From a virus, in IMG/VR virus record IMGVR_UViG_3300045391_005781: 51,153 nucleotides of DNA; one strand, 5' to 3'. Every line of letters begins with the position of its first letter. Within the stretch, counting starts at the first letter, position 1. This document shows positions 11,984 to 30,611 of the stretch, one piece after another. The notes below the pieces were generated by a model. The model made no database searches, had not been told where the DNA came from, and saw only the letters and a program-made list of their open reading frames with translations. The translations under genes and the position numbers were made by a program.

Positions 11984-12001
11984 AATAAACCTTATTCTAT
12001 A

Positions 12002-13230: not shown

Positions 13231-13390
13231 TATATTCTATATTCCCGTTTAAATAGCAGATAAATATATCGTTATTATATTACAATTATTATCATGTGTA
13301 ATTATTTCTGATGTAGAATACCTTTTTCTAAAATTATATAAAACATCAAATAATTCAAGCCTTTTTTTAGATTGATTGTTTTCATCAAGG

Positions 13391-15709
13391 TTAGTCTTTG
13401 TCATTTATTTCCTCCCTATATACAAAAGTCTTTGTTTTAATGCGAACTTTGTATCCTCGTTTGTATTCATTCTCAGCTCTTTCAATCTCTCCAGCTTCTG
13501 AAAGCAATTCAAGAATCTCATCTAGTTGTCTTGAATTTGCTATATATCTCACTGCTTGCCATAATTGAGATTTTTTAATCCATGTTCCATTTTTTGTTTT
13601 CTCCTTTACCTTTTCTAATATTTTCTTAACAATTTTTTCATTCGTATTATCGGAAAATGAATGAGCAATCGTGATGTTATTCCTGAGACAATGAAGTGCC
13701 ACAGCAACGCCCCATTGGATATCTGGTAATCTCATATAAGGCCATCTTTCTTTTATAATTTTATTTGGATTAATAGAATCCGAACTTATTCTATGAATAG
13801 GAATACTTAACAATGCAATTTTCATGGCTTGCTCAGGTAAATTGCCTACAAGCGAGTCAACTTGTGTACGAGCTTCGCTTAATTCTCTTTGAATAAGCCG
13901 GACTTCTTTTAAAAATTTTTTAAACCACTCTTGCGCTTCTGGTTCCATGATAGTTGTTTTAATCATGTTTTCTTTAGATATTTCTTTTAATGCTGATAAA
14001 AGTTCTTTAGGAATCACATCTACAGGACTTAAATTTTCGTCATATGGCAACCCAGGAGGAACCCAAAAAATCAAAAATCGAGCTAGCAAACCAGAAACTG
14101 CTGTTTGAGGCTTAAGAACTTCTAATATTTGCTCTGTAGATGTGCTGTATATATTTAAAAAAGGATCTTTAACACTTTCTACTTTTTCCGATTTGATCGT
14201 ATCAGTTGTTTGATATTTACAATTATAAAGAGTGAGAAGTTTTTGTTCTATTTTTTGTTCATTTGGAGATGTGTGTGCATTTAGAAAACTTTTAAAAATA
14301 TAAGCGAGTTCATCTTGCTTCCAAAATAATGCCCCTTTATTTTCATTAAGTTGGCGCAACATACCTTGATGGGATCCTATGCCTGATGTTAGCATTGAAT
14401 CTAATTCTAAAGCGGTCATAATTTGGTAAATTCGCTCAAGACCATTATTCTTACCTGAGCGACTTGGGCCAATTGCAAGAATATATAAATTTGTTTTTAA
14501 TTTTGTAGAGCTAACAAGCATATTTCTTTTTAAAAAGGCCATAATAGAAAGAGCAGTAGCTAAAGAATAAAGAGGCTGATGTATAATGGAACAATTTTCA
14601 ATCCATTGATAAAGATTTTGCATGGTAGGACATGGAATTTTAAAAATATCCTGTTCTACAAAACATTCTAATCTTCTTATACTAATCTCTGTGAGATCTT
14701 CATATGAATAAGTGGCCTCTTGGCCTTCCTCTTCTGTCTCAGAAATTTCTTCTGGTTCAAGTAATTTATTTCGCCGCGATTTTACTAACTTTTCTTGCCT
14801 TATTTCTGATTGATTTATAATTTCAGAATTATATCCTCTTTCTTTCGCCATTAATAATAATGTGCCTAAGCTAAGACCAGTTTTTTGAAATGTCGTCCAA
14901 TGAATGGCTAAATCATCTCTTCCTTTGTATTTAGATCCTTCTTTTGACCATTTGTTCCATAGATCAAACCCTCTTCCTCCAAATGCTCCTTGAAGAGCCA
15001 TCCCTATTCTAATCCAATCATTATAATCAATATCTGGGGATATGAAGCGCAGTGCACTTTCAGCTTTTGTAAAATCATTTTCTTTGCAGACTCTTTTTAC
15101 TTCATTTGATAAATGCTCAATTTGTTCATTTTTTGGATTAGGCTTAATTTTTTTAGACATTTTAGCCAAACTATATGGAGCTAAAAGCTTACCAAAACAA
15201 GCTTCTCCTTGAAAATAAGTTATAGAATTGGGCGGCATGTATGGGAAAAAGTATATTTGAGCAGCTCTTTTTGAAGCTGGATCTATTCCCTCGGGTTCCC
15301 CAAGATATAATAAACAACGCTCAAAAATATTATCCCAATCTTCTAAGATAACACTTTCATTAAATGGTAAAATTAATCTCCATTTAGGAACTTCTTCAGT
15401 ATGAGAATATGTATGATACCAAAAATGCATAATCTCTTTTTGTTGAAGTAACGAAGTTACTGATCCAACTGTTGTAGGAATTTCGATTTTATTATCAAAA
15501 TCTAAAACAAGACCTGTCATAGCAGATATATTTTCTTTTCCCCTTGTTCTCCCAGGATGATACATTGTAAAAGAAAAACATTTTTTGCGATCTTGCTTTG
15601 CACTAGCAGAGTCAAAATATGTTATTCGTTCTGCAAATTGCTCATATGTCTCATTACGAGGATGAGGCTTAACATGCTGAATGCTTTCAAAGAGATCATA
15701 TTTAATCAT
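13391..15709 (-). CDS. Primase-polymerase / helicase fusion (772 aa): prim-pol N-domain, PriCT-2-like segment, DUF3987/D5-like P-loop helicase
   Basis: LVLDFDN...WYHTYSHT (prim-pol acidic and His motifs). YNDWIRIGMALQGAFGGRGFDLWNKWSKEGSKY (PriCT-2-like). Walker A LAIGPSRSGKNNG. Confidence 0.8.
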   Translation of the reverse strand: MIKYDLFESIQHVKPHPRNETYEQFAERITYFDSASAKQDRKKCFSFTMYHPGRTRGKENISAMTGLVLDFDNKIEIPTTVGSVTSLLQQKEIMHFWYHTYSHTEEVPKWRLILPFNESVILEDWDNIFERCLLYLGEPEGIDPASKRAAQIYFFPYMPPNSITYFQGEACFGKLLAPYSLAKMSKKIKPNPKNEQIEHLSNEVKRVCKENDFTKAESALRFISPDIDYNDWIRIGMALQGAFGGRGFDLWNKWSKEGSKYKGRDDLAIHWTTFQKTGLSLGTLLLMAKERGYNSEIINQSEIRQEKLVKSRRNKLLEPEEISETEEEGQEATYSYEDLTEISIRRLECFVEQDIFKIPCPTMQNLYQWIENCSIIHQPLYSLATALSIMAFLKRNMLVSSTKLKTNLYILAIGPSRSGKNNGLERIYQIMTALELDSMLTSGIGSHQGMLRQLNENKGALFWKQDELAYIFKSFLNAHTSPNEQKIEQKLLTLYNCKYQTTDTIKSEKVESVKDPFLNIYSTSTEQILEVLKPQTAVSGLLARFLIFWVPPGLPYDENLSPVDVIPKELLSALKEISKENMIKTTIMEPEAQEWFKKFLKEVRLIQRELSEARTQVDSLVGNLPEQAMKIALLSIPIHRISSDSINPNKIIKERWPYMRLPDIQWGVAVALHCLRNNITIAHSFSDNTNEKIVKKILEKVKEKTKNGTWIKKSQLWQAVRYIANSRQLDEILELLSEAGEIERAENEYKRGYKVRIKTKTFVYREEINDKD

Positions 15710-15715
15710 GGTTTC

Positions 15716-16033
15716 TTACGCCACTTTCAAATATGCATTTGTGATGTAATTAAGACACATTAATATATCATGTAATCGATAATAAATTCCTCCTTCTTTA
15801 AATATCGGCTTAGCGCCATAATTTCTAAGTAATCGTTCAATATTTCTATGGTCTTCTAAAGGAAGAGTTTTTGTAATGTCATCAAGAGTAAATGAAATTT
15901 CTGCTTTATCTTCTATAGACACACGTTTTAATGTATCTAAAATATCTTTTGTGTTATTATAAAATCGTAATAACGATTCAGCAGTTTTTATTCCATTGTT
16001 AATCAATCTCATTAATTTATCAAATTCAGTCAT
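15716..16033 (-). CDS. Hypothetical protein (105 aa)
   Basis: ORF from the track, in the replication operon. Confidence 0.55.
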   Translation of the reverse strand: MTEFDKLMRLINNGIKTAESLLRFYNNTKDILDTLKRVSIEDKAEISFTLDDITKTLPLEDHRNIERLLRNYGAKPIFKEGGIYYRLHDILMCLNYITNAYLKVA

Positions 16034-16433
16034 TGAGTGAACTTTCTTTCTTTTGATGGTGGGGAACGTAAAAAATTGTAAGAGGAATGATTAAATTAAT
16101 TAATTCCCAACAATTTATTAATTTTGGAAGGGAAAAATATGTATTATTGTTTATATTTAAACTTATTTCATTATAGCTATTACTGTGTTTTCTGAGTAAA
16201 AATTTAAATTCTCCCTCTTTAGATTTGTTTATTGAGAAAAATTTTACTAATTCATCGTCCGAAAAAATAAGCTCTTTGTTTACATCAAATGAATCTGATT
16301 TAAAAAAAGGATAATTGTTTAAAATTTCATGAAAAATGCGTTTTTTGTGCATATCGTCAGTTAATTTATTACATACATCCTTAAGAGATGATTGAATAAA
16401 ATTATTAGAGAAAGGATTAACTTCTTGATTCAT
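16026..16433 (-). CDS. Hypothetical protein (135 aa)
   Basis: ORF from the track, in the replication operon. Confidence 0.55.
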   Translation of the reverse strand: MNQEVNPFSNNFIQSSLKDVCNKLTDDMHKKRIFHEILNNYPFFKSDSFDVNKELIFSDDELVKFFSINKSKEGEFKFLLRKHSNSYNEISLNINNNTYFSLPKLINCWELINLIIPLTIFYVPHHQKKESSLND

Positions 16434-16683
16434 TATTTACTCCTTGATTTGATACAGAACTAGATTTTTCTCTTTGGTCTTTTATATATTGAATCAAATC
16501 TTTTTTTAAATAACGATACACCCTTCCTTCTTTTAGGTATCTTGGGCCTGTTCCTTTTTGGCGCATTTCCCATAATTTTGTTTGACAACACCTTAATATT
16601 TTTGCGACCTCTCTTGAGGTTAGTAATTCTGGCACAACCTCATTATCATCATTTGGATCTTTTATTTCGTTTGTTAATGTCAT
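16417..16683 (-). CDS. Excisionase/AlpA-type (HTH_17) DNA-binding protein (88 aa)
   Basis: LLTSREVAKILRCCQTKLWEMRQKGTGPRYLKEGRVYRYLKKDLIQYI fits the MerR-like excisionase HTH pattern. Confidence 0.7.
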   Translation of the reverse strand: MTLTNEIKDPNDDNEVVPELLTSREVAKILRCCQTKLWEMRQKGTGPRYLKEGRVYRYLKKDLIQYIKDQREKSSSVSNQGVNNESRS

Positions 16684-16811
16684 GTAACACTCCTTTCTTG
16701 AGATGAAACATTCTGTTCACATTAATTTTGAAAGAAAATAAAAAGCTTTGAGATTTTTTTAAGATTGATATTTAAGATTTTTAGTCGATTCTAAAAAAGA
16801 AAAAAGATCTT

Positions 16812-16887
16812 TGGCTCCCCGAGACGGACTCGAACCGTCGACCTAATGATTAACAGTCACTTGCTCTACCAACTGAGCTATCGGGGA
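16812..16887 (-). tRNA. tRNA-Asn: tRNA-Asn (anticodon GTT), 76 nt with encoded CCA
   Basis: Manual cloverleaf: acceptor TCCCCGA/TCGGGGA; D arm GCTC-AGTTGGTA-GAGC; anticodon arm AGTGA-CTGTTAA-TCATT; T arm GACGG-TTCGAGT-CCGTC; discriminator G; CCA. Confidence 0.9.
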
Positions 16888-16896
16888 AAAAGATCT

Positions 16897-16980
16897 TGGT
16901 GGAGAACGTAGGATTTGAAGCTACATAGACGAATCGCCAGATTTACAGCCTAGGACTTTTAAGCGCACGGCCACTTCTTC
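16897..16980 (-). pseudogene. Degenerate tRNA-Tyr(GTA)-like gene, 84 nt with long variable region and CCA
   Basis: Intact anticodon arm CTAGG-CTGTAAA-TCTGG, TTCAAAT T-loop and GTTCTCC-A-CCA 3' end. Against a functional tRNA: two acceptor mismatches (A2.C71, G7.G66), no D stem and a C.C at the 53-61 position. Confidence 0.5.
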
Positions 16981-16983
16981 AAA

Positions 16984-17012
16984 AAAGTAAAAAAAAATTA
17001 ATAGATTTGCAA
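16984..17012 (-). promoter_or_regulatory. Candidate promoter (TTGCAA-N17-TACTTT) ending 3 nt upstream of the first base of the tRNA-like gene
   Basis: Read on the minus strand: ttgcaa atctattaatttttttt tacttt tttGAAGAAG. Confidence 0.3.
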
Positions 17013-17155
17013 AAAACAAATTATCTTTTACCATTTTAACGAATTTATTCTTTTAAAATCAAATGATTAAATAAAATATTTTTACCTTAACGTCTAACTC
17101 AAGAATTAAGATTTAACAAATTTTCAAGAATCCACAAAACAAACAAGTCTTCCCA

Positions 17156-17941
17156 TTATGGTATGACCTTACTCTGTATCAAAAGCTGTCGCACATTCAC
17201 AGCTGCCGGCATAAGAAATTTATTAACTTTCGTGGGTGGTATCATATAAATTCTTTGAAGATATTCTGATACAGCGCCATCTTGTTCTGGTGTAACTTTC
17301 CAATCATTATCACTCTTGTAATTATTGCAAAGATTAATAATATCTTTTTCAACATATAATTTAAAAAAAGCATTAACATCATTTTCTTTTCGAAAAATAG
17401 AATATATTTCATCTTCTTTATTAAATTCTTTAAAAAATATATTCATGCAATTTACAAGGTCTGATTCAGAATACTTCACCAAGAAACCATGTACTTTTTC
17501 AAAATTACACGAAAGAAGCTCATAAAAAGTGCTTTCTGTAAGAAATAGATCGGAAGATTTTATAATCTTATTTTCATCTGAGGAGTGCGAAATAAGATAC
17601 AAAGGTATATCTGCTTTTATAAGCATTTGTCTAAAAAGCTTAACAGAAACAATAATTTCTTCTTTGTTTATAATCTCTTGGATTAATGAATTTCTTTCGT
17701 GGGGTTGAACAAGCCCTACCCGAAGACGATCTCCGTCCTTTCTCGACAAAAAGATACCTTCTTTTTGATGAGATTTTTTCTCAAGCTCTGTTCTTATATA
17801 TTCTTCGTATTCAGCTCTGTAAATTTCTTTGGAATTAAAGAAATAACTATGAATTTCATCAAAGATAACAGTAGCTTGTAACTCCAAATTTGTATAACGT
17901 TTAACAAAAGCTAAAAACCCACTCTGCAAAAAAATCTGCAT
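17156..17941 (-). CDS. Hypothetical protein (261 aa)
   Basis: ORF from the track; no motif recognised. Lies between the tRNAs and the transporter. Confidence 0.6.
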   Translation of the reverse strand: MQIFLQSGFLAFVKRYTNLELQATVIFDEIHSYFFNSKEIYRAEYEEYIRTELEKKSHQKEGIFLSRKDGDRLRVGLVQPHERNSLIQEIINKEEIIVSVKLFRQMLIKADIPLYLISHSSDENKIIKSSDLFLTESTFYELLSCNFEKVHGFLVKYSESDLVNCMNIFFKEFNKEDEIYSIFRKENDVNAFFKLYVEKDIINLCNNYKSDNDWKVTPEQDGAVSEYLQRIYMIPPTKVNKFLMPAAVNVRQLLIQSKVIP

Positions 17942-17977
17942 TATATTTATCCCCGTTTACTTTCTTTTTGGCTTTAT

Positions 17978-19300
17978 TTAATGCAAAAATCTCATTTTGT
18001 TTTCAAAAGGAATATTTTCGTATTGTATATATGTATGTATACAATATGAAAAAATAACCCCTATGATTAACCAAGCATAAAAAATAATATTAAATCCAAA
18101 CATATCAGATAATTTATAAATAACAAAAGAAGTCAGTATATACATAACTGTTTTCCCAATAAAAAATGCTTTGTTAAAAGTTCTCGATCTTGCTTGAATG
18201 GGCAAACCTTTTAACAAAACTCCAATTGAAGGTATGTGATCTACCCCTAAGATAACAGAAAAACACTGACATACAAATATTTCTACAGGAGACGTTATAA
18301 AACTACTAAAACAAATTCCTAAGCTTAGAATCCAAATCAGCAATAAATATGATCTCATTTTTGTAATTTTTATCGGGTCATAATCATACGCTAACCAACC
18401 CCACATATAACTAGACAATCCTTGAATTAAGGCCACAATCGCATTATTTAACAAAATTTCAGAAGGCGACATTTTTGCTTCTACGAGCAACTTGACGCAA
18501 AATACATATACAAAAACAAACCCAAATCCAAAAAGTAGCTCAATCCCAACTATTCTTAAAATATTATGCTTATAATATAAATATATTTCTTTAATAGATA
18601 CTATTTTCTCTTCGGATGAATATTTAAGTATTGTATAATCTAGGCTTTCTTTTACCTTTTTTCTTGTTTGGTACCCAACAAGAGCAACAATGGAACCAAT
18701 AAAAAAAGGAAAAGTCCAACTCGGCACCTCATATATTTTTTGAGGAAGAAATCTTAAAGATATAAACGATATAACAAGACTTGCTACGACTCCTAAATTA
18801 CAAACGAGATCAAGAAGCCCTGAATAATAAGCTGTTTGCGATTTTGAGTAAGATTCCGCTATATATATATTAGAAGAAAGATACTCTCCCGTTAAAGCAA
18901 AGTCTGCAATTCCTCGAAGCAAACAAAACAAAAAAGCACTGTATAAAGTACGCTCCAAAAAGATGCCTTGAATGGGTATTAAAAAAAATACAACCGCCGA
19001 AATCATACATGACCAAATAAGAGGTACTCTGCGTCCCCTTGTGTCTGCTATATAACCCCATATCAGAGTTCCACATAAAGAACATATTAGAGTCATACAG
19101 AATCCAAAAATAATAGAATCATCAGGATTAAAATAAGGAGGAAAGAAAAGATAGCTTAAAATGGCGGCAAAGTGGATATAAAGAGCAAAATCATAATTTT
19201 CCAAAAAATTTCCCATAGATATATAAAACATGTATTTCTTTGGATGAGAAACCATCAAGACTTGATTTCGCGTAGATGTATCAGTATTATTCCCATGCAT
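17978..19300 (-). CDS. MFS transporter, metabolite:H+ symporter (MHS; ProP/KgtP-like) family (440 aa)
   Basis: GNFLENYDFALY (compare the GN..EWYDF..Y signature). ADTRGRR loop 2-3 motif. About 12 hydrophobic segments. Confidence 0.8.
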   Translation of the reverse strand: MHGNNTDTSTRNQVLMVSHPKKYMFYISMGNFLENYDFALYIHFAAILSYLFFPPYFNPDDSIIFGFCMTLICSLCGTLIWGYIADTRGRRVPLIWSCMISAVVFFLIPIQGIFLERTLYSAFLFCLLRGIADFALTGEYLSSNIYIAESYSKSQTAYYSGLLDLVCNLGVVASLVISFISLRFLPQKIYEVPSWTFPFFIGSIVALVGYQTRKKVKESLDYTILKYSSEEKIVSIKEIYLYYKHNILRIVGIELLFGFGFVFVYVFCVKLLVEAKMSPSEILLNNAIVALIQGLSSYMWGWLAYDYDPIKITKMRSYLLLIWILSLGICFSSFITSPVEIFVCQCFSVILGVDHIPSIGVLLKGLPIQARSRTFNKAFFIGKTVMYILTSFVIYKLSDMFGFNIIFYAWLIIGVIFSYCIHTYIQYENIPFENKMRFLH

Positions 19301-19402
19301 TGTTGCAGCTCCCCCTGTTTTACAGGCTTCAACATATCATTTTCATTCGTTTATCTCAATCTGTTTTTTTAATTTTTTTCTTTGATCGTCTTTTATAGAT
19401 TT

Positions 19403-19425
19403 GTTACGTGAGAGTTACGTAAAAA
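19403..19425 (+). repeat. 23-bp direct repeat, copy 1 (GTTACGTGAGAGTTACGTAAAAA): two GTTACGT heptamers 11 bp apart
   Basis: Perfect match with 19634-19656. Confidence 0.9.
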
Positions 19426-19572
19426 TATATATTCAGATGAAAATTGTTGATTTTCATAGATTTTATAAATTAAATTGATTAAAATTTGATTAACTGTTTT
19501 CGTGTATCTGATACTCTTATAAAACAAGGAATTCTTAAAAATTTTCTTAAAATTCAAGAACTTGTATGTTGC

Positions 19573-19599
19573 TTGACACGATTTGTTTGTTTCTATATT
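19573..19599 (+). promoter_or_regulatory. Candidate int promoter (TTGACA-N15-TATATT)
   Basis: Hexamers read directly. The 15-nt spacer is short. Confidence 0.35.
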
Positions 19600-19606
19600 C
19601 TTCGTC

Positions 19607-19628
19607 TAGATCGTTTTAAAACGATCTA
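19607..19628. promoter_or_regulatory. Perfect 22-bp palindrome TAGATCGTTTT|AAAACGATCTA between the two 23-bp repeats
   Basis: Self-complementary over all 22 nt. Lies 44 bp upstream of the int ATG. Confidence 0.85.
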
Positions 19629-19633
19629 ATTTA

Positions 19634-19656
19634 GTTACGTGAGAGTTACGTAAAAA
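19634..19656 (+). repeat. 23-bp direct repeat, copy 2
   Basis: Perfect match with 19403-19425. Ends 15 bp before the int ATG. Confidence 0.9.
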
Positions 19657-19671
19657 GAAAGGAACTATCAA

Positions 19672-20850
19672 ATGGGAAAACTAACGCAGACACGAATCAA
19701 CGAAGCTTTGCCGGAAAAAAAAGATTATTATATATGGGATGATAAATTTACAGGATTTGGATGCAGAATCTATCCGTCAGGACATAAGACGTATGTTTTT
19801 ATGTACACTTCTCCTCTTTATAAACGACGCCAAACCTTAAAAATAGGGAAAGATGGAAACATTGATCTCAAAAAAGCTTATGATATCGCGAAAGGATACT
19901 CAGGCGACGTTGCAAGAGGGTTAGATCCAAAAGATCTTCAGAAACAACAAATTGAAGACAAAAAGCTTGAGTTAGAGAACAAAAAAAAATCTATTAGATT
20001 TGATGAGTTTTGGGAAATATTTATGCAAAATCATGTTAATAAGCGCAAAACAGCAACGATTAGAGTTGTAATGTGTTTTAGCAAATATCACATTTTGCCA
20101 TACTTTAAAGATTTTCTGCTTAAAGACATTAAATTTAAAGATATTTTAGAATTTCAAAACCAATTAAGCCATTATGCTTCAACAAAAGTCGGGGTGATAG
20201 CTCATTTAAAAATAGCTTTTAATTTTGCAGAACGTCTAGGCTATATAGAAGATAATGCAAATCCTTGCAAAAATATTAAAATAGGAAAAACAAACCAAAA
20301 ACAAAATTTTTTAACCAAAGAAGATTTAATGCGCCTTGAAAATGAACTTGATAACAGTTTATTATCTAAAGACGTGCATATATCCACCATTATGTCCATA
20401 TATTTTGCTCTCTATACGGGGTTGAGAAAAAACGAAATTTTAAAACTTCGATGGGAAAATATAAATTTTGAAGATAAAAATCTTATTTTAGAAGATAGTA
20501 AAGTTGGAAAACGAGTATATCCTCTCAATAAAAAGGCCATAGAGTTACTCCTAAAAATGAGATCGAAACATACTAATGCATATATTTTTTATGGAAGATT
20601 TCCTGATTCTCACTTAAAAGATGTTTATACTTTTTGGGTAAATTTACGTAAAAAACTTAATCTTGAAAAAATTCGCATCCATGACTTGCGCCACTCTTTT
20701 GCAAGTTTTGCCATAAAAAATGGTGTTAGTATTGTGCATTTGTCTAAATTGCTAGGCCATACAAACATTACCACAACGATGAGATATGTACATTGCGATA
20801 TGGAAGACCTGCATAAAGCCTCAAATCAAACAGCCCAAGTCTTTAAATAG
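19672..20850 (+). CDS. int: Tyrosine integrase, P4-type (DUF4102 arm-binding N-domain plus phage_integrase catalytic domain), 392 aa
   Basis: The N-terminus LTQTRINEALPEKKDYYIWDDKFTGFGCRIYPSGHKTYVFMY fits the Arm-DNA-bind_3 pattern. The C-terminus has GLRKNE (Arg), HDLRHSFAS (HxxR) and LLGHTNITTTMRYVH (His...Tyr). Confidence 0.9.
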   Translation: MGKLTQTRINEALPEKKDYYIWDDKFTGFGCRIYPSGHKTYVFMYTSPLYKRRQTLKIGKDGNIDLKKAYDIAKGYSGDVARGLDPKDLQKQQIEDKKLELENKKKSIRFDEFWEIFMQNHVNKRKTATIRVVMCFSKYHILPYFKDFLLKDIKFKDILEFQNQLSHYASTKVGVIAHLKIAFNFAERLGYIEDNANPCKNIKIGKTNQKQNFLTKEDLMRLENELDNSLLSKDVHISTIMSIYFALYTGLRKNEILKLRWENINFEDKNLILEDSKVGKRVYPLNKKAIELLLKMRSKHTNAYIFYGRFPDSHLKDVYTFWVNLRKKLNLEKIRIHDLRHSFASFAIKNGVSIVHLSKLLGHTNITTTMRYVHCDMEDLHKASNQTAQVFK

Positions 20851-21139
20851 TTAATTTCAAAAAAGTAAACTTTTGCGAGTAATTTTTATCTTTGCAAAAA
20901 ATAAGAAATAATTTATCATAAGAAAATTAGAGGGAATAGTTCTCTCTAATTTGGGCGAGATGCCATAGTGCGATAACACCATGACACCTCTAACCATCAT
21001 CAACAACATGGTGAAGACGATGGCTTTGTACATAGTATCCAATCTTTTTCTTTTATTCCAGTTATTTCCCTTCGCTTCACGGTTGATGATGGTTTTCTTT
21101 TTGCGCCTATATTGTCCAATTTGCAAAGAAGGGTAAAAT

Positions 21140-21412
21140 ATGTTAAACAACTTGAAACATGAAATTAAGATCATCCTTGTGGAACACAAGATAACAAAAA
21201 AAGATATAACATTTATCGTCAGCCAAGCTTGTAAAGAAATAAATAATCCTATTCCAATTAATACTTCTTTTGAAAAGCTTGTTGCAAATCAGCTAGATAA
21301 ATATAATATTCAATATGTGAAGAAATTTGATATGATAACAAAAATTTGGCTAGAGATAATTAATCACAAACAAAAAAAATCTCTTAAACTTTCTGGAACT
21401 AAGTATAGTTGA
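21140..21412 (+). CDS. Hypothetical protein (90 aa)
   Basis: ORF from the track. Confidence 0.5.
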   Translation: MLNNLKHEIKIILVEHKITKKDITFIVSQACKEINNPIPINTSFEKLVANQLDKYNIQYVKKFDMITKIWLEIINHKQKKSLKLSGTKYS

Positions 21413-21531
21413 AGAGCTTAATAATACTACTAATAAATAATCAAAAATAATGATATGCGTTATCTGTTTTATTTGTGGATTTATTTTCTGCTTAATCCTA
21501 AATAAACTGATAAGATAATAAAGGAAGAAAC

Positions 21532-21780
21532 ATGAGCAATGTAAACAACAACCTTCAAGATAAATATTTTTCTACATTTGTTAACAACAAAATTTATGCC
21601 GCAGTATATCTTATAAACGGAAAAATGTATGACGGATTCATAACAGATTACGATGCTTTTACCTTTACTATTCTCAAAAAAATAGAAGGTAAAAATATAG
21701 AATCATTAGTATATAAACATGCTGTTACGGTAATTACCGTATTTATTCCTGGATTCCATGACAAAGATAAAAGAAAATAA
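21532..21780 (+). CDS. hfq: Hfq-like RNA chaperone (Sm fold), 82 aa
   Basis: NLQDKYF, VYLINGKMYDGFITDYDAF and LVYKHAVTVI compare with E. coli Hfq SLQDPFL, IYLVNGIKLQGQIESFDQF and MVYKHAISTV. AAGGAAG SD upstream. Confidence 0.8.
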   Translation: MSNVNNNLQDKYFSTFVNNKIYAAVYLINGKMYDGFITDYDAFTFTILKKIEGKNIESLVYKHAVTVITVFIPGFHDKDKRK

Positions 21781-21853
21781 CTGGTTTGTTTATTCAATGT
21801 TTTGATTTATTCCAGAAACAGAAGTTTGATTACTACGATGTAATAGGGAATTG

Positions 21854-21879
21854 CCGCAGCGTCTCGTGGCGCTGTCGGT
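21854..21879 (+). terminator. GC-rich hairpin about 75 nt downstream of hfq (ccgcagcg-tctcgtgg-cgctg(t)cgg)
   Basis: An 8-bp stem with one bulge in an otherwise AT-rich stretch. No clean U-tail. Confidence 0.35.
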
Positions 21880-21956
21880 CTTCAAAATAAAATCATTAAA
21901 CTTCAACGCAAACATTTAAAGATAATAAATAAATTTTAACTATAAAAGGATCTAAT

Positions 21957-22349
21957 ATGGCAATCGTAGAATTTGTTCCTCGCAAAACGAAACCTGACAT
22001 TGAATCTAAAGTACATATATCTTTCACTCGTAGGTTTAGCAAAAAGAAAAAAATCGTCCATGTCCTTGTACTGCGGATAGGCAAAAAAGTTGCTAAAGCA
22101 ATTAATCTTATGCCAGGAGATAGGGTGTCATTCTTTTGTAATGACGAATATCCTAGAATTTGGTTCATCAAAAAATCTCAAAATAAAGGTTATAAATTAG
22201 GAGGAAAACCTCATATGCATACTTTTACCATTCAATGTACATGGGATTTATTTATCCCTGATAAAAATGAATTTGCAAATCATTTAGTGGGCCACAAAAT
22301 TGACCAAGATAGTATAATAATTGATGCGAAAAACACAATCACTGATTAA
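21957..22349 (+). CDS. Hypothetical protein (130 aa)
   Basis: ORF from the track. A weak AbrB/SpoVT-like segment (LRIGKKVAKAINLMPGDRVSFF) is not enough for a call. Confidence 0.55.
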   Translation: MAIVEFVPRKTKPDIESKVHISFTRRFSKKKKIVHVLVLRIGKKVAKAINLMPGDRVSFFCNDEYPRIWFIKKSQNKGYKLGGKPHMHTFTIQCTWDLFIPDKNEFANHLVGHKIDQDSIIIDAKNTITD

Positions 22350-22416
22350 GTTGATCTTGTTTTTTGCACGAGAACATTCTATCATAAGTTCGAAAACGCC
22401 TATAATAGGGTTTTCT

Positions 22417-22471
22417 CCAATGCTTATCTTAAGATTGGATTTACAAACCTATTGCTCAATGGAGGATAGAA
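22417..22471 (+). promoter_or_regulatory. ROSE-like RNA thermometer in the 5' UTR of the sHSP gene: two hairpins, each with a bulged G, the second sequestering the SD
   Basis: Hairpin 2 (22449-22469): CUAUU(G)CUC-AAUG-GAGGAUAG. UUGCU pairs with the GGAGGA SD and has a bulged G. Hairpin 1 (22417-22438): CCAAU(G)CUUA-UCU-UAAGAUUGG. A TATAAT box lies at 22401-22406. Confidence 0.6.
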
Positions 22472-22894
22472 ATGACTCTCGATCTACAACCTTTTTTTCG
22501 TTCCACTATCGGTTTTGATCAAATAGCTGATATCTTAGAGAAAGCTACCAATAAAAAATTTGTTCAAAACACTTATCCGCCTTATAACATTGAAAAACTA
22601 AATGAAGACAGCTACATGATTAGCGTTGCCGTTGCTGGATTTAATGAAACAAACCTTGAAATAACAAAGCACAATAATCTTTTGCAAATCGATGGTAAAA
22701 TTGAAAAAGAAGAAGAAAAAACAATGTTCCTGCATAAAGGTATTGCAACACGTTCTTTTCAATTACAATTCAGACTAGCTGATCATATGGACGTGAAAGA
22801 TGTTTCTATTGAAAATGGAATGCTTTTACTCCACTTACAAAGAGATATTCCAGAAGAAATGAAGCCACAAAGGATTAAAATAAGTAAATTTTAA
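22472..22894 (+). CDS. Small heat-shock protein, Hsp20/alpha-crystallin family, IbpA-like (140 aa)
   Basis: TYPPYNIEKLNEDSYMISVAVAGFNETNLEITKHNNLLQIDGK compares with IbpA GYPPYNVE...YRIAIAVAGF...L.I......L.V.G. Confidence 0.9.
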   Translation: MTLDLQPFFRSTIGFDQIADILEKATNKKFVQNTYPPYNIEKLNEDSYMISVAVAGFNETNLEITKHNNLLQIDGKIEKEEEKTMFLHKGIATRSFQLQFRLADHMDVKDVSIENGMLLLHLQRDIPEEMKPQRIKISKF

Positions 22895-22895
22895 T

Positions 22896-25139
22896 TTATT
22901 CTTCTGTTTCGGAAGATTCTCCTAAAGATCCTTCCTGTTTACGTATAGCCGGAAGGATTTGTTTTAAGTAAATCTGTCTCATTTCTGTTTGGTGTTTAGC
23001 AGCATCTTTTAGTTTGTTCTGCTGGCGAGCAAGTGCAAATTTAGCTGCGGCATCGGTGTATTTTTGATTGGCAGCAAGACGGGATAAAAGATTAATTCCT
23101 GCTGTTGTTGCGGCTGTTCCTAACAATTGTCCGGTGCCTACCCCAATACCTAATATTCCATACATCATATTGCCAATTCTTTTAAAATCTTCCTGAGCTA
23201 AGGCAGTACCACTGGGATTTGCTGCTTGCTTTCCAGATTTAATGAATTGTTGAGAAATCTTTGCGAGTTTATTCATGTCTTCAAAAGAGTGTTCTCCCAT
23301 CAATGCTTTTAAAAGAGGTTTATGCCTAGATTTGTTCTCAAACATTTGAGCTAATTTTGCATAACTTATCCCACCTTCTCCCACTTTTAAAGCATCATGG
23401 ATATATTCTTCTGCTTTAGCGCGTTTTAAAGACTGCATAACTTGTTTTGCGGCAGGAGATGTTCCTAAAATTCTTGATAATTCATTAATATTTTGTGGAG
23501 AGGTCATATAATTAAAGGCTTCTTTCGGCATTTGGCCTTTATATAAAGATTCAGCAAAATCAGATCTTACACGATCAGCTATTTCTTGTTTATAAAATGA
23601 ATTAGCTGCGCGCCAATTGTTGAGGAATTCTTTGTTTTTTGTGGATGAAATATCTTTATCCAAGGCGCTAATTAAAGAAGTCATAAAACCTTTAGCTCCT
23701 CTTGCCTCTTCTCCATATTGGATATCACGCATAAAAGCTGAGCGTTGTTGGATTAATTTATCTAATGAAATTTCCGATGGAACTGATTTTAAAGATTCCA
23801 AATATTTATTTATTTCTTCTTGAGCGTTTTTTCCTAATCTTTCATCAATCTTAAGTTTTTGGGAACCTAATCCCCAAGCTTCGCTTAATTCAGCCAATCT
23901 TTTTAATACAAATTTCATATCAGAAGAAGGAACGTCAGCTGAGAGTTTGCCCTTTAGTTCTTTAATTGTGTCTAAAGTATGAGTTGGAACTACTTTATCA
24001 TTTGAGGTTAAATATTCTCTTGTTTTATCATATAATTTATTTGCTTTTGAAGAAATTTCTGCTTCTTCTTGCTTCAGTTTCTGAAAATAATCTCTTGAGG
24101 CTGTTTCTTTACCAATATTCTCTGGAGCAATAGATTCAATTTTATCTTTGATTAAATCAATCATTTTTTGATCAGCAGCTTGGATGCCTTTTTTATATTT
24201 TTCACTGCTAAAGATAGATTTAAAAACTGAGTTTGCTAAAAAGTTAGAAATATAACTATCTAGCTTTACATTAAAAGGAATATCAACACCAAGATCTTTT
24301 GCCGCTTTTAAAACATTTTCATTTGGCTTTGCTAAAAGTGATAATGCGCGTCCAACTGTCTCTTCCCCAACAGATGATTTACCAGTTAAAACATCCTTGG
24401 CGGATTTCCCAACTCCTTTTGCAAAAACTCCGGCTCCTTTTGCTGCGGCTTGAGTAAAACCACTGGCACCAATTCCTGCTCCTAATGCAGCTAAAGGATT
24501 AATACCCTCTTCTTCTAATGCTGATAAAGTAGCTCCTGTGGCTGCCGCTCCTGCAAGTTCTGTTGGCTTTGTAGTTCCAATAGTCCCCAAAACTTTCTCT
24601 CCTGTTTTCTGACCAACTTTCCCGAGCGCTTTAGCAGCTCCACCTGGCCCTGCAAGAGCGCCTGTAAATTTAGCTGCTTCATATTGGTGTTTAATGTCAT
24701 CAGGAGTTTTTGTGTATCCTCCAGTTGCTGTATCAATACTTTTCTCGATTGCTTCGGATGCTGATGGAATTAAGGGAAGTTCTTTCTGGCCTGAAACCTT
24801 TTCATAAAGCATACGAGCTAAAGAAGCTGGATCAAGATTAGCGCTTATAGCTAACATTGGATGTTTTTCTCCAAGCTGTTCACGAAGTTCAGCACTAGCA
24901 TTTGCAGCTTGAGCCGGAATATTATATGCCATTGCAGTTGTGTCCGGAATAGCACCAAGAGCACCAGAGGCCGCTCCTTTGCCTAAAACTGCTGCATGTT
25001 GAGGTAAAGATGTACCATGTTTAGGAACAATCACAGCGCCTCTTTGTTTTGCCTGCTCAACCTTATCTGACGCTATATTCCATATTTGACCATCAGGAGT
25101 CCGCATTTGAATCATAAATTCATTAGATTTTGGCTCCAT
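22896..25139 (-). CDS. Large internal virion/ejection protein (747 aa) with Gly/Ala-rich and C-terminal hydrophobic segments
   Basis: Last and largest gene of the virion operon. Contains GILGIGVGTGQLLGTAATTAGINLL. No tape-measure context. The call rests on position and composition. Confidence 0.55.
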   Translation of the reverse strand: MEPKSNEFMIQMRTPDGQIWNIASDKVEQAKQRGAVIVPKHGTSLPQHAAVLGKGAASGALGAIPDTTAMAYNIPAQAANASAELREQLGEKHPMLAISANLDPASLARMLYEKVSGQKELPLIPSASEAIEKSIDTATGGYTKTPDDIKHQYEAAKFTGALAGPGGAAKALGKVGQKTGEKVLGTIGTTKPTELAGAAATGATLSALEEEGINPLAALGAGIGASGFTQAAAKGAGVFAKGVGKSAKDVLTGKSSVGEETVGRALSLLAKPNENVLKAAKDLGVDIPFNVKLDSYISNFLANSVFKSIFSSEKYKKGIQAADQKMIDLIKDKIESIAPENIGKETASRDYFQKLKQEEAEISSKANKLYDKTREYLTSNDKVVPTHTLDTIKELKGKLSADVPSSDMKFVLKRLAELSEAWGLGSQKLKIDERLGKNAQEEINKYLESLKSVPSEISLDKLIQQRSAFMRDIQYGEEARGAKGFMTSLISALDKDISSTKNKEFLNNWRAANSFYKQEIADRVRSDFAESLYKGQMPKEAFNYMTSPQNINELSRILGTSPAAKQVMQSLKRAKAEEYIHDALKVGEGGISYAKLAQMFENKSRHKPLLKALMGEHSFEDMNKLAKISQQFIKSGKQAANPSGTALAQEDFKRIGNMMYGILGIGVGTGQLLGTAATTAGINLLSRLAANQKYTDAAAKFALARQQNKLKDAAKHQTEMRQIYLKQILPAIRKQEGSLGESSETEE

Positions 25140-25141
25140 AT

Positions 25142-26263
25142 TTATTCCTTGACTCCTAAATCAGAAAGATCATAAGGATTAGAATTTTCTGTATTTGATT
25201 TAGATTCTTCGTGTTGAATTTTGTCATTCTCATCTAACATTGGATAATAATTGCCAATGATGGCTTTTTCATAAACATTAGCTTTTCTAATATTATCTTG
25301 CGCTCTTTTTTCCCAAATATCTGATATTTTTTCAAAGCCTTTGGTTGTTAATTTTCCATGTGGAGCGGCTTGTTGAATTGCTTTTTTTAGCATATCTGTT
25401 GTGTTTCTTCCTTTTTGTCCCATAATTACATCAAGGTTTAAATCGGCAGATAATTTTTTTAAGATATCTACAGCAGCTAGTTTATTAGGATCAGATAATT
25501 CTCTCATGATTTGATTACGCCAAGATACATCGTTTTCATCATTGATAACATGCAAAAAACTTGTTCCAATATCTGGATATTGTTCAAATATGGTTTTCAT
25601 TTCTGCAATAGCTTCAAGAGCACGGTGATTAAATGGCACATTTTTTACATATTCTGAAGCCGTTGTTTCGAAATTTTCTCTAAATTTTTTAGGCAAAGAA
25701 GATAAAGGAACAGCTCCTTTTGAAGAAGAAATTTGTTCCTGTTGCTCGGGGTGGATTTCGTCAAGCTTCCTTTGCAATTGTTTTTCATGCAAATTCAAAT
25801 ATTTATTGCGATATGCTTTTTGTTCAGCAAATTGCGCTTCTCTATGTTTTCTTAATTCTTCCTGTTCTTTTTCCCTTTGCTGAAGCTCTAGCATATTCAA
25901 TGCCACTCTTTCTTGCATTTCACGTTGTTTGATAGCTTTATCCTGAAGATAGGCATTACGCTGCGCGATTCTTTGTTCCTCAGTCGTATAAGCATTCACA
26001 GCAGGCATAATACTTGCATTCAAAGCTGCTAAAGTTCCACCGAGTCCACTCCCATATCCTGGACGCGACATATTTGATCCTAAAGCTAACATAGCATGGC
26101 CAAATGCTCGTTGTTGCTGTTGGCGATCCATCTCTAGAGAATTGTTAGCTGCTTGAATTGCAGATTGTGTACCATTTAAAATGGGAGATTGATCAACTTC
26201 TTGGTTTTTTGCTTGCTCTAAATCAGATAAATTATGCAAATATTGCATAAGTATTGGGTCCAT
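25142..26263 (-). CDS. Internal virion protein, Gln/Glu-rich coiled coil (373 aa)
   Basis: ORF from the track; the call rests on position. Confidence 0.5.
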   Translation of the reverse strand: MDPILMQYLHNLSDLEQAKNQEVDQSPILNGTQSAIQAANNSLEMDRQQQQRAFGHAMLALGSNMSRPGYGSGLGGTLAALNASIMPAVNAYTTEEQRIAQRNAYLQDKAIKQREMQERVALNMLELQQREKEQEELRKHREAQFAEQKAYRNKYLNLHEKQLQRKLDEIHPEQQEQISSSKGAVPLSSLPKKFRENFETTASEYVKNVPFNHRALEAIAEMKTIFEQYPDIGTSFLHVINDENDVSWRNQIMRELSDPNKLAAVDILKKLSADLNLDVIMGQKGRNTTDMLKKAIQQAAPHGKLTTKGFEKISDIWEKRAQDNIRKANVYEKAIIGNYYPMLDENDKIQHEESKSNTENSNPYDLSDLGVKE

Positions 26264-27264
26264 TACAACATTCCTCTGGGTATATGATGCTCATTTTTCA
26301 TTTGGTGACGAGACATTGAATGAGATTTTTTATATTTATTATTAGACATAAATTTCAACTCAGATAACCCAAAAGGATGCTGCTTTATTCTTCGCGCAGG
26401 ACTTCCTCCTTTTTTAAACTGTCGAGGAATTTGAGAAGCTCCATATAACTGCGCAGCTAAAGATCCAACTTGCCCCGCTGTATTAACTTGAGGAACTAAT
26501 CCTCTTGGTACATAAAGTCCTTCTGAAGTTATTCCCTGATTTGGCAATCCATGCAATATGGCCGCATGTTGTTGTAACATTTGATGAGGATAATATGCTT
26601 GTCTTAAAAATTCAGATCTGTTCTCATTTGCTACATTTTGCCTATGTTGTTGACCAACTTGACCCGCATGCATTAAAGACTCAATATCTCCTAAATGAGA
26701 TGCTTGTGCATATCTCCCGAGTTCTGCAATATTTCGACCGGCTTCTGCGGCTCGCCCTGTTTCACGATGATGATGTTGTGCTCCCTGTTCATAACCTGAT
26801 GCTAAAAGCCTACCTTGTTCACGCAAAATTTGTTCTTGTAAATCTCTTGCGGCGCGAAGACGCAAATCATCATGGCGAGAACTTCTTTGTTGTCCTAATC
26901 CTACAAATTGCGCCTCTAATTGAGGTAGAATATTTTCCCTTAAGGTTCTTTCCCCCAATCGTGCTATATCATTAACAACAGCTTGTTGATAAGGATTCAT
27001 ATATTGTCGATATACATCACGAAAAGGTTGAGCCGCACCTGCCTGAAGATTTCTTGCTTGTTGAAAATATGGAGCAGTAACACCTGTTTGTCTTGATCTT
27101 TCAATAGCAGTTTGAGTCTCCGGAGAAAGAGGCGCGATAGTTTCTCCTCGATAATGCGCATAAGGAGTTTGCCGAAATGCTTCAGATATACCAGCTAATT
27201 CACGATACATAGCCTCCATCCATGGAGGCATTGTCTGTGAACTTATGCGAGTTTGTAACGGCAT
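26263..27264 (-). CDS. Internal virion protein (333 aa), Gln/Arg-rich, with a C-terminal basic tail carrying FKKGGS
   Basis: ORF from the track. Shares the basic-GG motif with neighbouring virion proteins. Confidence 0.5.
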   Translation of the reverse strand: MPLQTRISSQTMPPWMEAMYRELAGISEAFRQTPYAHYRGETIAPLSPETQTAIERSRQTGVTAPYFQQARNLQAGAAQPFRDVYRQYMNPYQQAVVNDIARLGERTLRENILPQLEAQFVGLGQQRSSRHDDLRLRAARDLQEQILREQGRLLASGYEQGAQHHHRETGRAAEAGRNIAELGRYAQASHLGDIESLMHAGQVGQQHRQNVANENRSEFLRQAYYPHQMLQQHAAILHGLPNQGITSEGLYVPRGLVPQVNTAGQVGSLAAQLYGASQIPRQFKKGGSPARRIKQHPFGLSELKFMSNNKYKKSHSMSRHQMKNEHHIPRGML

Positions 27265-27276
27265 AATGAAATCTCC

Positions 27277-28836
27277 TTATCTATGACGTTGTCTCATATA
27301 TGAACTTAAAGATTTTGCTTTTGGAGGTAATCCCTTAACACCTTTATGACGCATCACATTTTTTTGCAAAAGATCTAGTTTTTTAGCGCCATTTTGATTA
27401 TTCCCTTTACCCAATAATGATACTTGATGAGGTTCCACTCTATATTCTCCCTGTGAAACTTTTGCCGGAATTGATCGACGTGTATATCCTCCACTGTTAT
27501 GACGTTTATACTGACTTAATCCCATGGTATGTTCTAAATCATGGAAAAAACGATCAAGTTTTCGAGCTCCAGCCGCGCTATTTCCGTCTCCCAGATGTGA
27601 AACCGCCGTTGCATTTATAATATAAGAATTTTCTGGTAAATCCATTTCGACATCATCATCTTGCCCTCCAGAATCTCCATAAATATAACCGCCTTTGGCA
27701 AAACGAGGATTTACATCTCTAAAATATTTTTTATGATAACCAGCCTTTCGCCCCTCTGCTTCTTCTATATCATCAGGAACATCAAGTTGTTCTCTAATCA
27801 AAGGTCTTATAGGTCTTGGATATTGATCAGGTCTCCACATATCCGAAATCCCTCGAGGTCCAATTAATCTGTTAAATGCTTTTAATTCATTTTGAATATC
27901 CCCAACATTTGGTTCTGATTTATTAGGACGCATTTTTTCATTTCTCATCAACATTCCACCTAATGCAATAGGCAAAAGCCAACTTGACATGCCCCCCAAA
28001 CCTCCAAGTCCAGAAGATCCGAAAAAAGAAGATGTATCTTTTGATGCTCCTTGATTTACTCCCTGAGTTAAAGGTGCAAGTTCTTCTGTATAGATTGGAT
28101 TTCTTGATACAAGAGCATTTTCGCTTCCTCTTCCAAGCGCAGAACCAAATGACCTCATGGCATTTCCATATTGACCGCCACCTATTTGCTCCAGTCCTCG
28201 TCCTACATTTGTCATACCTAATCCAGACAATCCTTTACCTACCATAGGCAGCCCATACCCAACGCCAGCACCAACGCCTGCTCCACGCAAAGCCGCTTTA
28301 AATGGGCTTTTGCCTCTTGCCTGTCCACTTAGCGCTCCGGTCAATGCGCCTCCTAATGGAGCGCCAATACCTGGTAAAAGTGTATTTCCTGCTAAAGCGC
28401 CTGCTAAAGGAAGTGCTTTACGAAATATTCTTTTTAATTTCTTCCAGAATCCAAATTGAGGTAATCCAGTATACGGATTAATATCCATCCCATGTTCTAG
28501 ACCAAGTTCCATTGCTTCTTCAGGATTAATGTGAGCAAGAATCGTGTCATCTCCTTCACCTTCTTCCGATAAATAATCTGCCATTTCAGAAAGGTTTTGA
28601 GGATGAACTCTGCCACCGTGGGCATATCGCGCTTCTAATTGATTTGGATTGGTAAATGGAGCTTGAGGATTTAATTGTGGCGTTTGAGAGCTTGGATACA
28701 AAGGTGGCAACGATGCAATGGGAGAAGGATACATTGGCAATGGATTTTGATTCATTAAACCATATGCATATGGCATTTGATTTTGATTATTTAACATGTT
28801 GGGATTCAATCCCATATTCGGCATTTGATTAAACAT
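27277..28836 (-). CDS. Internal virion/ejection protein (519 aa from MFNQMPNMG...). It has an N/Q/P-rich N-terminus, a Gly-rich hydrophobic core and repeated x-GG motifs.
   Basis: The ATG is preceded by GGAGGG; the track start at 28854 is 6 codons upstream. Motifs seen: YAHGGRV, DDTILAHINPEEAMELG...NPYTGLPQF, ALPLAGALAGNTLLPGIGAPLGGALTGALSG and FAKGGYIY. Confidence 0.55.
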   Translation of the reverse strand: MFNQMPNMGLNPNMLNNQNQMPYAYGLMNQNPLPMYPSPIASLPPLYPSSQTPQLNPQAPFTNPNQLEARYAHGGRVHPQNLSEMADYLSEEGEGDDTILAHINPEEAMELGLEHGMDINPYTGLPQFGFWKKLKRIFRKALPLAGALAGNTLLPGIGAPLGGALTGALSGQARGKSPFKAALRGAGVGAGVGYGLPMVGKGLSGLGMTNVGRGLEQIGGGQYGNAMRSFGSALGRGSENALVSRNPIYTEELAPLTQGVNQGASKDTSSFFGSSGLGGLGGMSSWLLPIALGGMLMRNEKMRPNKSEPNVGDIQNELKAFNRLIGPRGISDMWRPDQYPRPIRPLIREQLDVPDDIEEAEGRKAGYHKKYFRDVNPRFAKGGYIYGDSGGQDDDVEMDLPENSYIINATAVSHLGDGNSAAGARKLDRFFHDLEHTMGLSQYKRHNSGGYTRRSIPAKVSQGEYRVEPHQVSLLGKGNNQNGAKKLDLLQKNVMRHKGVKGLPPKAKSLSSYMRQRHR

Positions 28837-30603: not shown

Positions 30604-30611
30604 CTGATGTC

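Follow-up and report, generated by a model that had tools for sequence, protein, structure and literature searches.

An Hfq-family gene without rim arginines in the cargo block of a probably temperate phage

The hfq gene and its product

We analysed a virus-derived stretch of DNA of 51,153 nt (IMG/VR virus record IMGVR_UViG_3300045391_005781), hereafter called the window, which carries a gene of the Hfq family among cargo genes next to an integrase. The open reading frame (ORF) begins with ATG and has 82 codons. Its extent, its plus-strand location and its own Shine-Dalgarno (SD) sequence, as given in a preliminary description of this DNA, were reproduced exactly. The SD sequence was read directly from the letters. 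The two features are:

21521..21527, plus strand: SD sequence AAGGAAG of hfq, 4 nt 5' of the ATG
21532..21780, plus strand: hfq, an 82-aa Hfq-family protein by gene call, profile, PDB and fold evidence

The preliminary description had read this ORF as an Hfq homologue across the whole Sm fold from three motif alignments, and had named the Pfam profile PF17209 as the check and an empty Hfq/Sm profile search as the counter-evidence. The motif alignments were recovered both by MAFFT and by HMMER against PDB Hfq chains. The profile PF17209 matched significantly over positions 1-59 of 64, covering both Sm1 and Sm2; at 47.5 bits (E=1.4e-12), the match lies above the curated family threshold, a gathering score of 27. 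With the NCBIfam models, the protein scored 55.6 bits for TIGR02383 (Hfq equivalog), slightly under the cut-off of 61.7, and 44.3 bits for NF001602, whose cut-off is 95. By these scores the window protein is inside the Hfq family, yet no equivalog by NCBIfam cut-offs. No family matching it was found in PHROGs.

A phmmer search of PDB sequences (E<=1) returned 35 Hfq-named chains and one Hfq-like protein, the top match being 4y91 from Thermotoga (E=1.2e-9). We then considered the fold. An AlphaFold2 monomer prediction, made from a 33-sequence alignment, had a mean predicted local distance difference test score (pLDDT) of 90.4 and comprised an N-terminal helix alpha1 (H8-18) and five beta strands. 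When this model was compared with the PDB using Foldseek, the top 50 matches were all Hfq, with TM-scores normalised by target of 0.65-0.91 and a root-mean-square deviation of about 2 A for most. Homology across the whole Sm fold is thereby borne out by profile score, predicted structure and fold matches, and the ORF at 21532..21780 almost certainly encodes a true member of the Hfq family (bacterial Sm).

RNA-binding surfaces of the predicted protein

The alignment indicated that the proximal uridine pocket is kept, E. coli Q8, F42, Y55, K56 and H57 corresponding to Q9, F43, Y61, K62 and H63 of the window protein. D9, G34 and D40 (E. coli numbering) are also kept, and the Sm2 interface strand LVYKHAVTVI is conserved. 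On the distal face, Y26, N29 and G30 match E. coli Y25, N28 and G29, and E. coli I30 and K31 are changed to K and M; specificity is not readable from these residues. The beta3-beta4 loop has a 4-residue insertion, found in the window protein only among the aligned sequences; the PDB holds one E. coli Hfq structure (6xyj) in which the L4 loop is likewise extended by a long insertion. The C-terminus is a short basic tail, HDKDKRK, with no long or acidic C-terminal domain, and the KDK motif of this tail is common to three aligned members of the clade described below.

At the rim, the E. coli patch RRER (positions 16-19) is VNNK in the window protein, with zero arginines; the arginine patch of the RRER or RKxK types, in which R16 is nearly universal and on which RNA annealing depends, is absent. 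The corresponding residues are VKNK in the relative P0006 and IKNE in P0011 and P0054, position 16 being hydrophobic (V or I) throughout the phage clade. Among 284 Hfq domains gathered around the query, a set biased to its relatives, position 16 is Arg in 236, and just 20 have a rim patch without any Arg. Studies of E. coli Hfq showed that rim mutants still form hexamers and bind RNA, and that mutating three rim residues at once removes all annealing activity and makes the protein inhibitory, through a stable yet inactive complex (PMC3753642). Because the VNNK rim lacks arginines and the E. coli rim mutants bind without annealing, the phage Hfq may bind RNA but anneal it poorly, a prediction in which we place middling confidence.

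Rim arginines were also missing from two proteins outside this clade. The first, P0036 (contig L108, 4724..4960), has an E. coli-like core (46% identical, including VYLVNGIKLQGQI) and the rim LNSK; its contig is phage-like, with the large and medium subunits of a phage topoisomerase II, a phage phosphoesterase and many unknown ORFs. The E. coli-like core suggests that an Hfq of proteobacterial type was captured here on a separate occasion and lost its rim arginines afterwards. The other, P0039, is a cellular Hfq in an LptD/OmpA/RelA context; since its rim is HNNK, with no Arg, the absence of rim arginines is not exclusive to phages.

Relatives and conservation

The identical protein was found in identical context on 7 contigs, the places shown coming from 5 datasets. 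An exhaustive HMMER comparison with 1.84 billion representative proteins gave only 49 matches with E<=1e-3, and no more than 3 reached E<=1e-10. Identical copies aside, the closest protein is P0006 (82 aa, 48-49% identical), encoded on a 19.6-kb contig of another metagenome, which belongs to a second phage referred to here as L011. The gene order of L011 (YqaJ, AAA_24, primase, HTH_17, orf260, MFS, integrase, orf90, hfq, hsp20, structural genes) is that of the window, and the orthologues of the two phages are 33-70% identical, with 48% for Hfq, 55% for the integrase, 64% for MFS and 70% for Hsp20. Because hfq holds the same position in L011 at this level of protein identity, it appears to have been retained through deep phage divergence. 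Between the window gene and that for P0006, the nonsynonymous difference (pN) is 0.33 and the synonymous difference (pS) 0.63, like the values of neighbour genes and consistent with purifying selection. Very probably, hfq is a functional phage gene under selection.

After P0006 in similarity comes P0002 (45% identical), an ordinary cellular hfq in a mutS-mutL-miaA-hfq locus; among the proteins searched, no cellular Hfq is more than 45% identical to the window protein. This distance, the few close proteins and the syntenic orthologue in L011 argue against a recent capture.

We searched 5.8 billion proteins (90% clusters) with a profile built from the three closest sequences. The results showed only four clade members, namely the window protein, P0006, P0011 and P0054, after which the score dropped from 137 to 111 bits, to Hfqs of ~165 aa, two of them with Sphingomonadales source names. 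The contig of P0011 (L015, gene at 10001..10288) resembles a large phage: it encodes a topoisomerase II large subunit (phrog_543, E=4.5e-126) whose listed best matches come from 195-229 kb phages, together with RNase H, a phosphatase and many unknown ORFs on one strand. By these comparisons the window Hfq is a member of a very small phage-associated clade without rim arginines.

The third-best relative, P0007 (L016, 5243..5710), is a tandem two-domain Hfq of 155 aa. Its neighbours are ThiF, Prok-E2 genes, an intein-containing UvrD, FtsH and NurA, and its source may be a virus or a cell.

The phage genome

Positions 1-70 of the window are identical to 51084-51153. Because of this recurrence, the window is a circular assembly with a true genome length of 51,083 bp. 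Four independent contigs of other datasets cross the genome junction at 100% identity, and the terminase large subunit (TerL, 548 aa) is continuous over it (50105..51083 + 1..668, minus strand). The arbitrary start of the window splits this gene, so that the ORF list covers just the last 329 codons, its C-terminal part. In a 100.6-kb JGI contig, too, portal, terminase and orf177 follow one another through the junction. We considered this contig as an integrated prophage with host flanks and rejected it, as it is a concatemer of about two copies without host flanks. The main features outside the cargo block are:

16812..16887, minus strand: tRNA-Asn (GTT)
22896..51083, minus strand: structural and packaging module (ejection protein, virion proteins, SU10-type adaptor, capsid, portal and TerL, the last continuing into 1..668)
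51084..51153, no strand: 70-bp repeat of positions 1-70, from the circular assembly

The replication region at 10.8-16.4 kb encodes a YqaJ-like exonuclease, an AAA_24 ATPase and a PriCT_2/DUF3987 primase-helicase. Two further genes encode an HTH_17 protein (possible excisionase) and an HTH_3 protein. Because these two accompany an integrase gene, the phage is probably temperate. The nearest cultured phages are Roseobacter CRP-901/902 and Pelagibacter HTVC023P/027P, with TerL 30-41% and portal 34-39% identical. Virion and packaging genes with an integrase, in a closed genome with no host flanks, mark a complete and probably temperate tailed phage; no attB site was found for it. The preliminary description had called the genome complete, and the terminal repeat, the junction-spanning contigs and the portal, TerL, capsid, adaptor and ejection genes bear this out. 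On this gene content, the window is a complete, probably temperate podovirus, distant kin of the CRP-901/HTVC023P group.

A low-G+C Gram-negative host is suggested by the beta-barrel gene described below, by an Hsp20 of IbpA type, by the strength of the SD sequences and by the fact that the nearest cultured phages infect alphaproteobacteria. No paper citing the accessions of the samples was found. We also looked for relatives in other collections. A scan of a genome collection with the MFS alignment found no relative, and one with the TerL alignment gave only distant matches (<=48%) from many phyla, none of them with further genes in common with the window phage. Neither the phage-Hfq alignment, scanned against metagenomes, nor the protein, scanned against viral contigs, retrieved anything, the window included, and these contigs are evidently absent from those collections.

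Several other observations concern the rest of the genome. The G+C content is about 27-33% over most of 1..23000 (36% in the first 2 kb) against about 34-42% in 23000..47000. A cargo gene for an outer-membrane beta-barrel protein (PF13505) lies at 8129..8803 on the plus strand, and an ORF at 10337..10756 (plus strand) has an IS1/IS1595-type zinc-ribbon N-terminus and no transposase domain. Beside tRNA-Asn, 16895..16980 on the minus strand is a tRNA-like remnant ending ...TTCAAATCCTACGTTCTCCACCA (T-arm, acceptor, CCA). It received no call from ARAGORN or Rfam, and it may be a decayed type-II tRNA or an attP core.

The cargo block around hfq

The gene lies in a block of plus-strand genes in the order int, orf90, a 22-codon ORF, hfq, orf130 and hsp20, flanked by two minus-strand modules, which agrees with the plus-strand cargo block of the preliminary description. 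In cells, hfq follows miaA, often with mutL upstream; here it stands between integrase/orf90 and hsp20. The neighbouring genes are:

17978..19300, minus strand: MFS transporter of the metabolite/H+ symporter family, on the other side of the integrase, 64% identical in L011
19672..20850, plus strand: tyrosine integrase (Arm-DNA-bind_3, SAM-like and catalytic domains), first gene of the block
21140..21412, plus strand: orf90, 5' of hfq in both phages, 40% identity
21450..21518, plus strand: 22-codon ORF for a hydrophobic peptide (MICVICFICGFIFCLILNKLIR), its stop codon abutting the hfq SD
21957..22349, plus strand: orf130, absent from L011
22472..22894, plus strand: hsp20, an IbpA/IbpB-like small heat-shock protein, last gene of the plus block

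The hsp20 product scored 128-139 bits with IbpA/IbpB models of NCBIfam type, and the family matched by the MFS protein includes ProP. Like the MFS gene, orf261 is on the minus strand and across the integrase from hfq. The cargo region has ~30% G+C against 37-42% over most of the structural module. We found no match for orf90 in Pfam, PHROG, PADLOC or the PDB, and searches of PDB sequences gave nothing meaningful for orf90, orf130 or orf261. The gene orf90 is possibly co-transcribed with hfq. A reading of the cargo as a defence system was dropped, as PADLOC matched no cargo gene.

The small ORF upstream of hfq has 22-24 codons and is strongly hydrophobic and Cys-rich in both phages, the counterpart in L011 (~9921..9995) encoding MEYVIFFYILGCLVTLIFDKFIIK at the same place. 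From this positional conservation we infer that it is coding. The peptide may act in the membrane as a small protein, may resemble a toxin, or may be a leader whose translation is coupled to that of hfq.

Candidate RNA elements

The preliminary description had linked hfq with a thermometer-controlled gene nearby and with promoter-plus-hairpin units elsewhere in the genome, as an RNA-based kit for host takeover or lysogenic conversion. We examined the spacers concerned, and two elements are listed here:

21821..21904, plus strand: long hairpin between hfq and orf130, its tip rich in G+C, from fold analysis
~22391..22471, plus strand: hsp20 leader, a candidate cis-regulatory element by conservation, with the SD sequence GGAGGA in a weak local hairpin

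The 145-nt hfq-orf130 spacer folds at -35.4 kcal/mol (z = -3.1). In L011, a hairpin also stands directly after hfq (10251..10350; -39.5, z = -3.3), and its sequence is unrelated to that of the window. Its lone Rfam signal was DUF3800-V on the minus strand, at 31.7 bits against a gathering threshold of 37.4. As this match was sub-threshold and present in L011 only, it was set aside. The hairpin at 21821..21904 is a candidate terminator, processing site or 3'-untranslated-region RNA. A separate two-hairpin element of 49% G+C occupies 20954..21025 (minus strand) in the integrase-orf90 spacer and overlaps an 89-aa minus-strand call of doubtful coding value. Its Rfam match to SymR antitoxin RNA, at 41.7 bits against a gathering threshold of 61 (E=1e-5 in a 3.7-kb search) and with no counterpart in L011, was likewise set aside. 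In all, no conserved small RNA (sRNA) candidate was found near hfq, the two spacer hairpins being unrelated and the Rfam matches sub-threshold or absent.

The hsp20 leader is ~86% identical to that of L011 by our own count on the alignment, against 64-74% for neighbouring DNA. It holds TATAAT at 22401-22406, which is TATGAT in L011. Its folds are not significant (z = -0.7 and +0.7 in the two phages), and the helix is invariant, with no covariation to score. No Rfam thermometer family matched at E<=5 in 19.3-23.0 kb. From its conservation the leader is likely cis-regulatory, and an RNA thermometer is a plausible form of it. The thermometer proposed near hfq thus keeps a conserved leader and an SD in a weak hairpin on its side; a matching Rfam family and a significant fold are missing.

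The units proposed at 1.6-2.6 kb gained no support. We found 5 promoter-like sites in 1.3-3.4 kb, fewer than the 7.9 in its own shuffles, with two weak terminator-like sites and no Rfam match. Within this region, the ~830 bp of 1600..2432 have no called gene in any covering contig. The unit proposed at 49.8 kb fared better in part. In 49.6-50.2 kb, 5 promoter-like sites were present against 1.6 +/- 1.3 expected, including a near-consensus sigma-70-type promoter, TTGACA-17-TAAAAT, at 49811-49839 (plus strand) in a 411-nt spacer. This promoter reads antisense towards the terminase gene with no plus-strand ORF after it, and the RNA downstream folds no better than shuffles (z = -0.9) and has no homologue for comparison. 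The RNA-based kit as a whole is mostly undemonstrated; it is not refuted, yet it is unsupported as a system.

Deposited phage records and literature

Three tblastn queries (the window protein, P0002 and the core of E. coli Hfq) were run against 50,697 deposited phage records, of which only 7 matched. Two 501-kb Salmonella contigs were rejected as plainly bacterial by title and size. Two contigs carry an Acinetobacter-phage label, and the one inspected is chromosome (mutL-miaA-hfq-glnS-lpxH). An UNVERIFIED phage record was rejected for its mutS-mutL-miaA-hfq locus. The remaining two, unannotated Staphylococcus records of 386 kb and 1.6 kb, look like host DNA, judged without context. The results showed no credible Hfq in the 50,697 records.

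The phage-labelled records with host hfq DNA that we noted are CAKLQH020000029.1, CAKLQF020000030.1, MT835489.1, AFYI01000007.1, AGRM01000005.1 and OR844988.1, of which OR844988.1 and CAKLQF020000030.1 are listed without inspection of their context. This calls for caution with databases: every Hfq gene now deposited as phage either turned out on inspection to be host DNA or has that appearance, and such records would mislead surveys of phage Hfq.

In a library of predicted viral structures, only distant Sm-like folds were found, at <=22% identity to the window protein, the "Hfq-like" proteins of mycobacteriophages among them. Full-text searches found no paper describing a phage-encoded Hfq, and the paper describing the CRP-901/HTVC023P group never mentions Hfq. 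In recent literature Hfq belongs to the host, and phages make use of it by way of sRNAs that they encode themselves; phages are known to carry Hfq-dependent sRNAs (bioRxiv 10.64898/2026.06.19.733364).

Comparison with known Hfq proteins

The window protein shares with canonical proteobacterial Hfq (E. coli, Pseudomonas, Caulobacter) the Sm fold, the Sm1 and Sm2 motifs, the proximal pocket and the distal Tyr and Gly. It differs in its 24-30% identity, VNNK in place of RRER, the loop insertion and the lack of a long or acidic C-terminal domain. The canonical gene occupies a cellular miaA-hfq locus, whereas the window gene lies in a phage cargo block and scores under the NCBIfam equivalog cut-off. 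In the cellular locus, hflX adjoins hfq.

Firmicutes Hfqs resemble it in other respects: they are short, with short tails and few or no rim arginines (KANQ in S. aureus, RKEN in B. subtilis), and Firmicutes and Thermotoga Hfqs are among the best PDB sequence and structure matches of the window protein. They differ as chromosomal housekeeping proteins that retain R or K at position 16, in place of the V or I of the phage clade. In sRNA matchmaking they play a limited or unclear part (PMC3753642). By its surface, the closest functional analogue is the E. coli rim triple mutant R16A/R17A/R19D, which likewise has no rim Arg (Panja, Schu and Woodson 2013, PMC3753642). That protein is a cellular one mutated by design; the variant in the phage arose in nature and is conserved, and its activity is a prediction.

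Extra Hfq copies in bacteria, such as Burkholderia Hfq2, are plasmid or chromosomal paralogues of a known host and lie outside virus genomes. B. anthracis pXO1, for example, encodes Hfq3. Like the phage gene, these copies exist beyond the housekeeping one and sometimes on mobile DNA (PMC3474761, PMC7074383). The "Hfq-like" proteins of actinobacteriophages (Adephagia gp39; Tonenili, Phabba) are phage-encoded with an Sm-like fold by prediction. Their resemblance is one of fold only, the two named Mycobacterium-phage proteins being 14% identical to the window protein, whereas the window protein scores above the Pfam gathering threshold.

Discussion

Taken together, the evidence is best explained by a selectively maintained phage Hfq that holds RNA without annealing it, carried as accessory cargo next to the integrase, and we hold this explanation with moderate confidence. 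The protein would form a ring of the Hfq type and bind U-rich RNA 3' ends and perhaps A-rich RNA. By analogy with the E. coli mutants, a ring without the rim arginines that catalyse base pairing would keep RNAs in passive complexes and would not match sRNAs with mRNAs. Made from the cargo block, the protein might sequester or protect particular host or phage RNAs, and host Hfq-dependent regulation could then be dampened or re-routed, or phage transcripts stabilised. This specific biological role is tentative. It is possibly stress-related, given the company of Hsp20 and MFS, which is compatible with the idea of RNA holding. Of the effects on host riboregulation among which the preliminary description had left the choice open (supply, replacement or titration), titration, or else sequestration, is favoured by the lack of rim arginines over the other two.

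Several points weigh against this explanation. The argument from convergence, that rim loss occurred independently, is drawn from two lineages. K20 and the basic tail HDKDKRK might partly substitute for the rim charge. In Gram-positive bacteria, Hfqs that are poor in rim arginines nevertheless bind RNA functionally and have roles of their own, so a missing rim does not by itself imply sequestration. Synonymous sites are saturated across the orthologues (pS 0.62-0.79), and dN/dS is only rough.

A possible but rather unlikely alternative, which overlaps with the RNA-holding explanation and differs mainly in who benefits, is that hfq, the IbpA-like Hsp20 and MFS form a stress-tolerance module, host-fitness cargo for the lysogen or infected cell. 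In many bacteria, hfq mutants are stress-sensitive. MFS, int, orf90, hfq and hsp20 are kept as a unit in two diverged phages, the block is ~30% G+C against 37-42% over most of the structural module, and both the 128-139 bits of Hsp20 to IbpA/IbpB and a transporter family that includes ProP fit such a purpose; however, this is guilt by association, and no regulatory link between the genes was found. We regard as unlikely that the protein is a fully competent chaperone, adding Hfq where that of the host is limiting or absent and so enabling sRNA regulation by phage or host. The proximal pocket and the distal Tyr and Gly are kept, Hfq-dependent sRNAs are known from phages (bioRxiv 10.64898/2026.06.19.733364) and structured spacers adjoin hfq in both phages; but there is no rim Arg, position 16 is hydrophobic, a state that abolishes annealing in E. 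coli (PMC3753642), and the search for a conserved sRNA gave only unrelated spacer hairpins with sub-threshold or no Rfam matches.

Mixed rings with host Hfq, in which fewer rim arginines would make the phage subunit dominant-negative on host riboregulation, would draw on the well-conserved Sm2 interface strand and the absent rim. We consider this improbable, as 24-45% identity to cellular Hfqs and the 4-residue loop insertion make mixed assembly uncertain. That hfq is a neutral passenger or a decaying gene is very improbable: it is a small gene in a variable cargo region, where the neighbouring orf130 occurs in one of two phages, but its frame is intact, its position is the same at 33-70% protein identity, its functional residues are kept and pN is about half of pS. 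Mis-assembled host DNA, or a bacterial island taken for a phage, would be an error of a common kind, given that the Hfq matches in the deposited phage collection are or look like host DNA. Here it is scarcely credible, in view of the same context on 7 contigs from several datasets, the circular assembly with junction-spanning contigs, the syntenic orthologue in a second phage, the lack of a miaA/hflX context and the <=45% identity of cellular Hfqs.

It was as a phage host factor that Hfq first came to light, and host Hfq is now known to be put to use by phages by means of small RNAs of their own. By its sequence and genome context, the gene described here is a genuine Hfq, its carrier is a genuine phage, and it has been conserved between phages that diverged deeply. 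Its altered surface sits at the very place that separates RNA binding from RNA matchmaking, and it makes a natural rim-less Hfq available for mechanistic work. A more far-reaching reading, which we regard as doubtful, is that phages have repeatedly captured Hfq and each time lost the rim, yielding a viral "anti-chaperone" that grips U-rich sRNA 3' ends or A-rich mRNA leaders and never releases them into duplexes. If this is true, the protein would blunt sRNA-based stress or defence responses of the host, or protect the RNAs of the phage against RNase E, be it in infection or in lysogeny, and would represent a new class of viral counter-regulator aimed at the hub of riboregulation itself. The finding raises the question of viral interference with, or privatising of, a central hub of bacterial post-transcriptional regulation.

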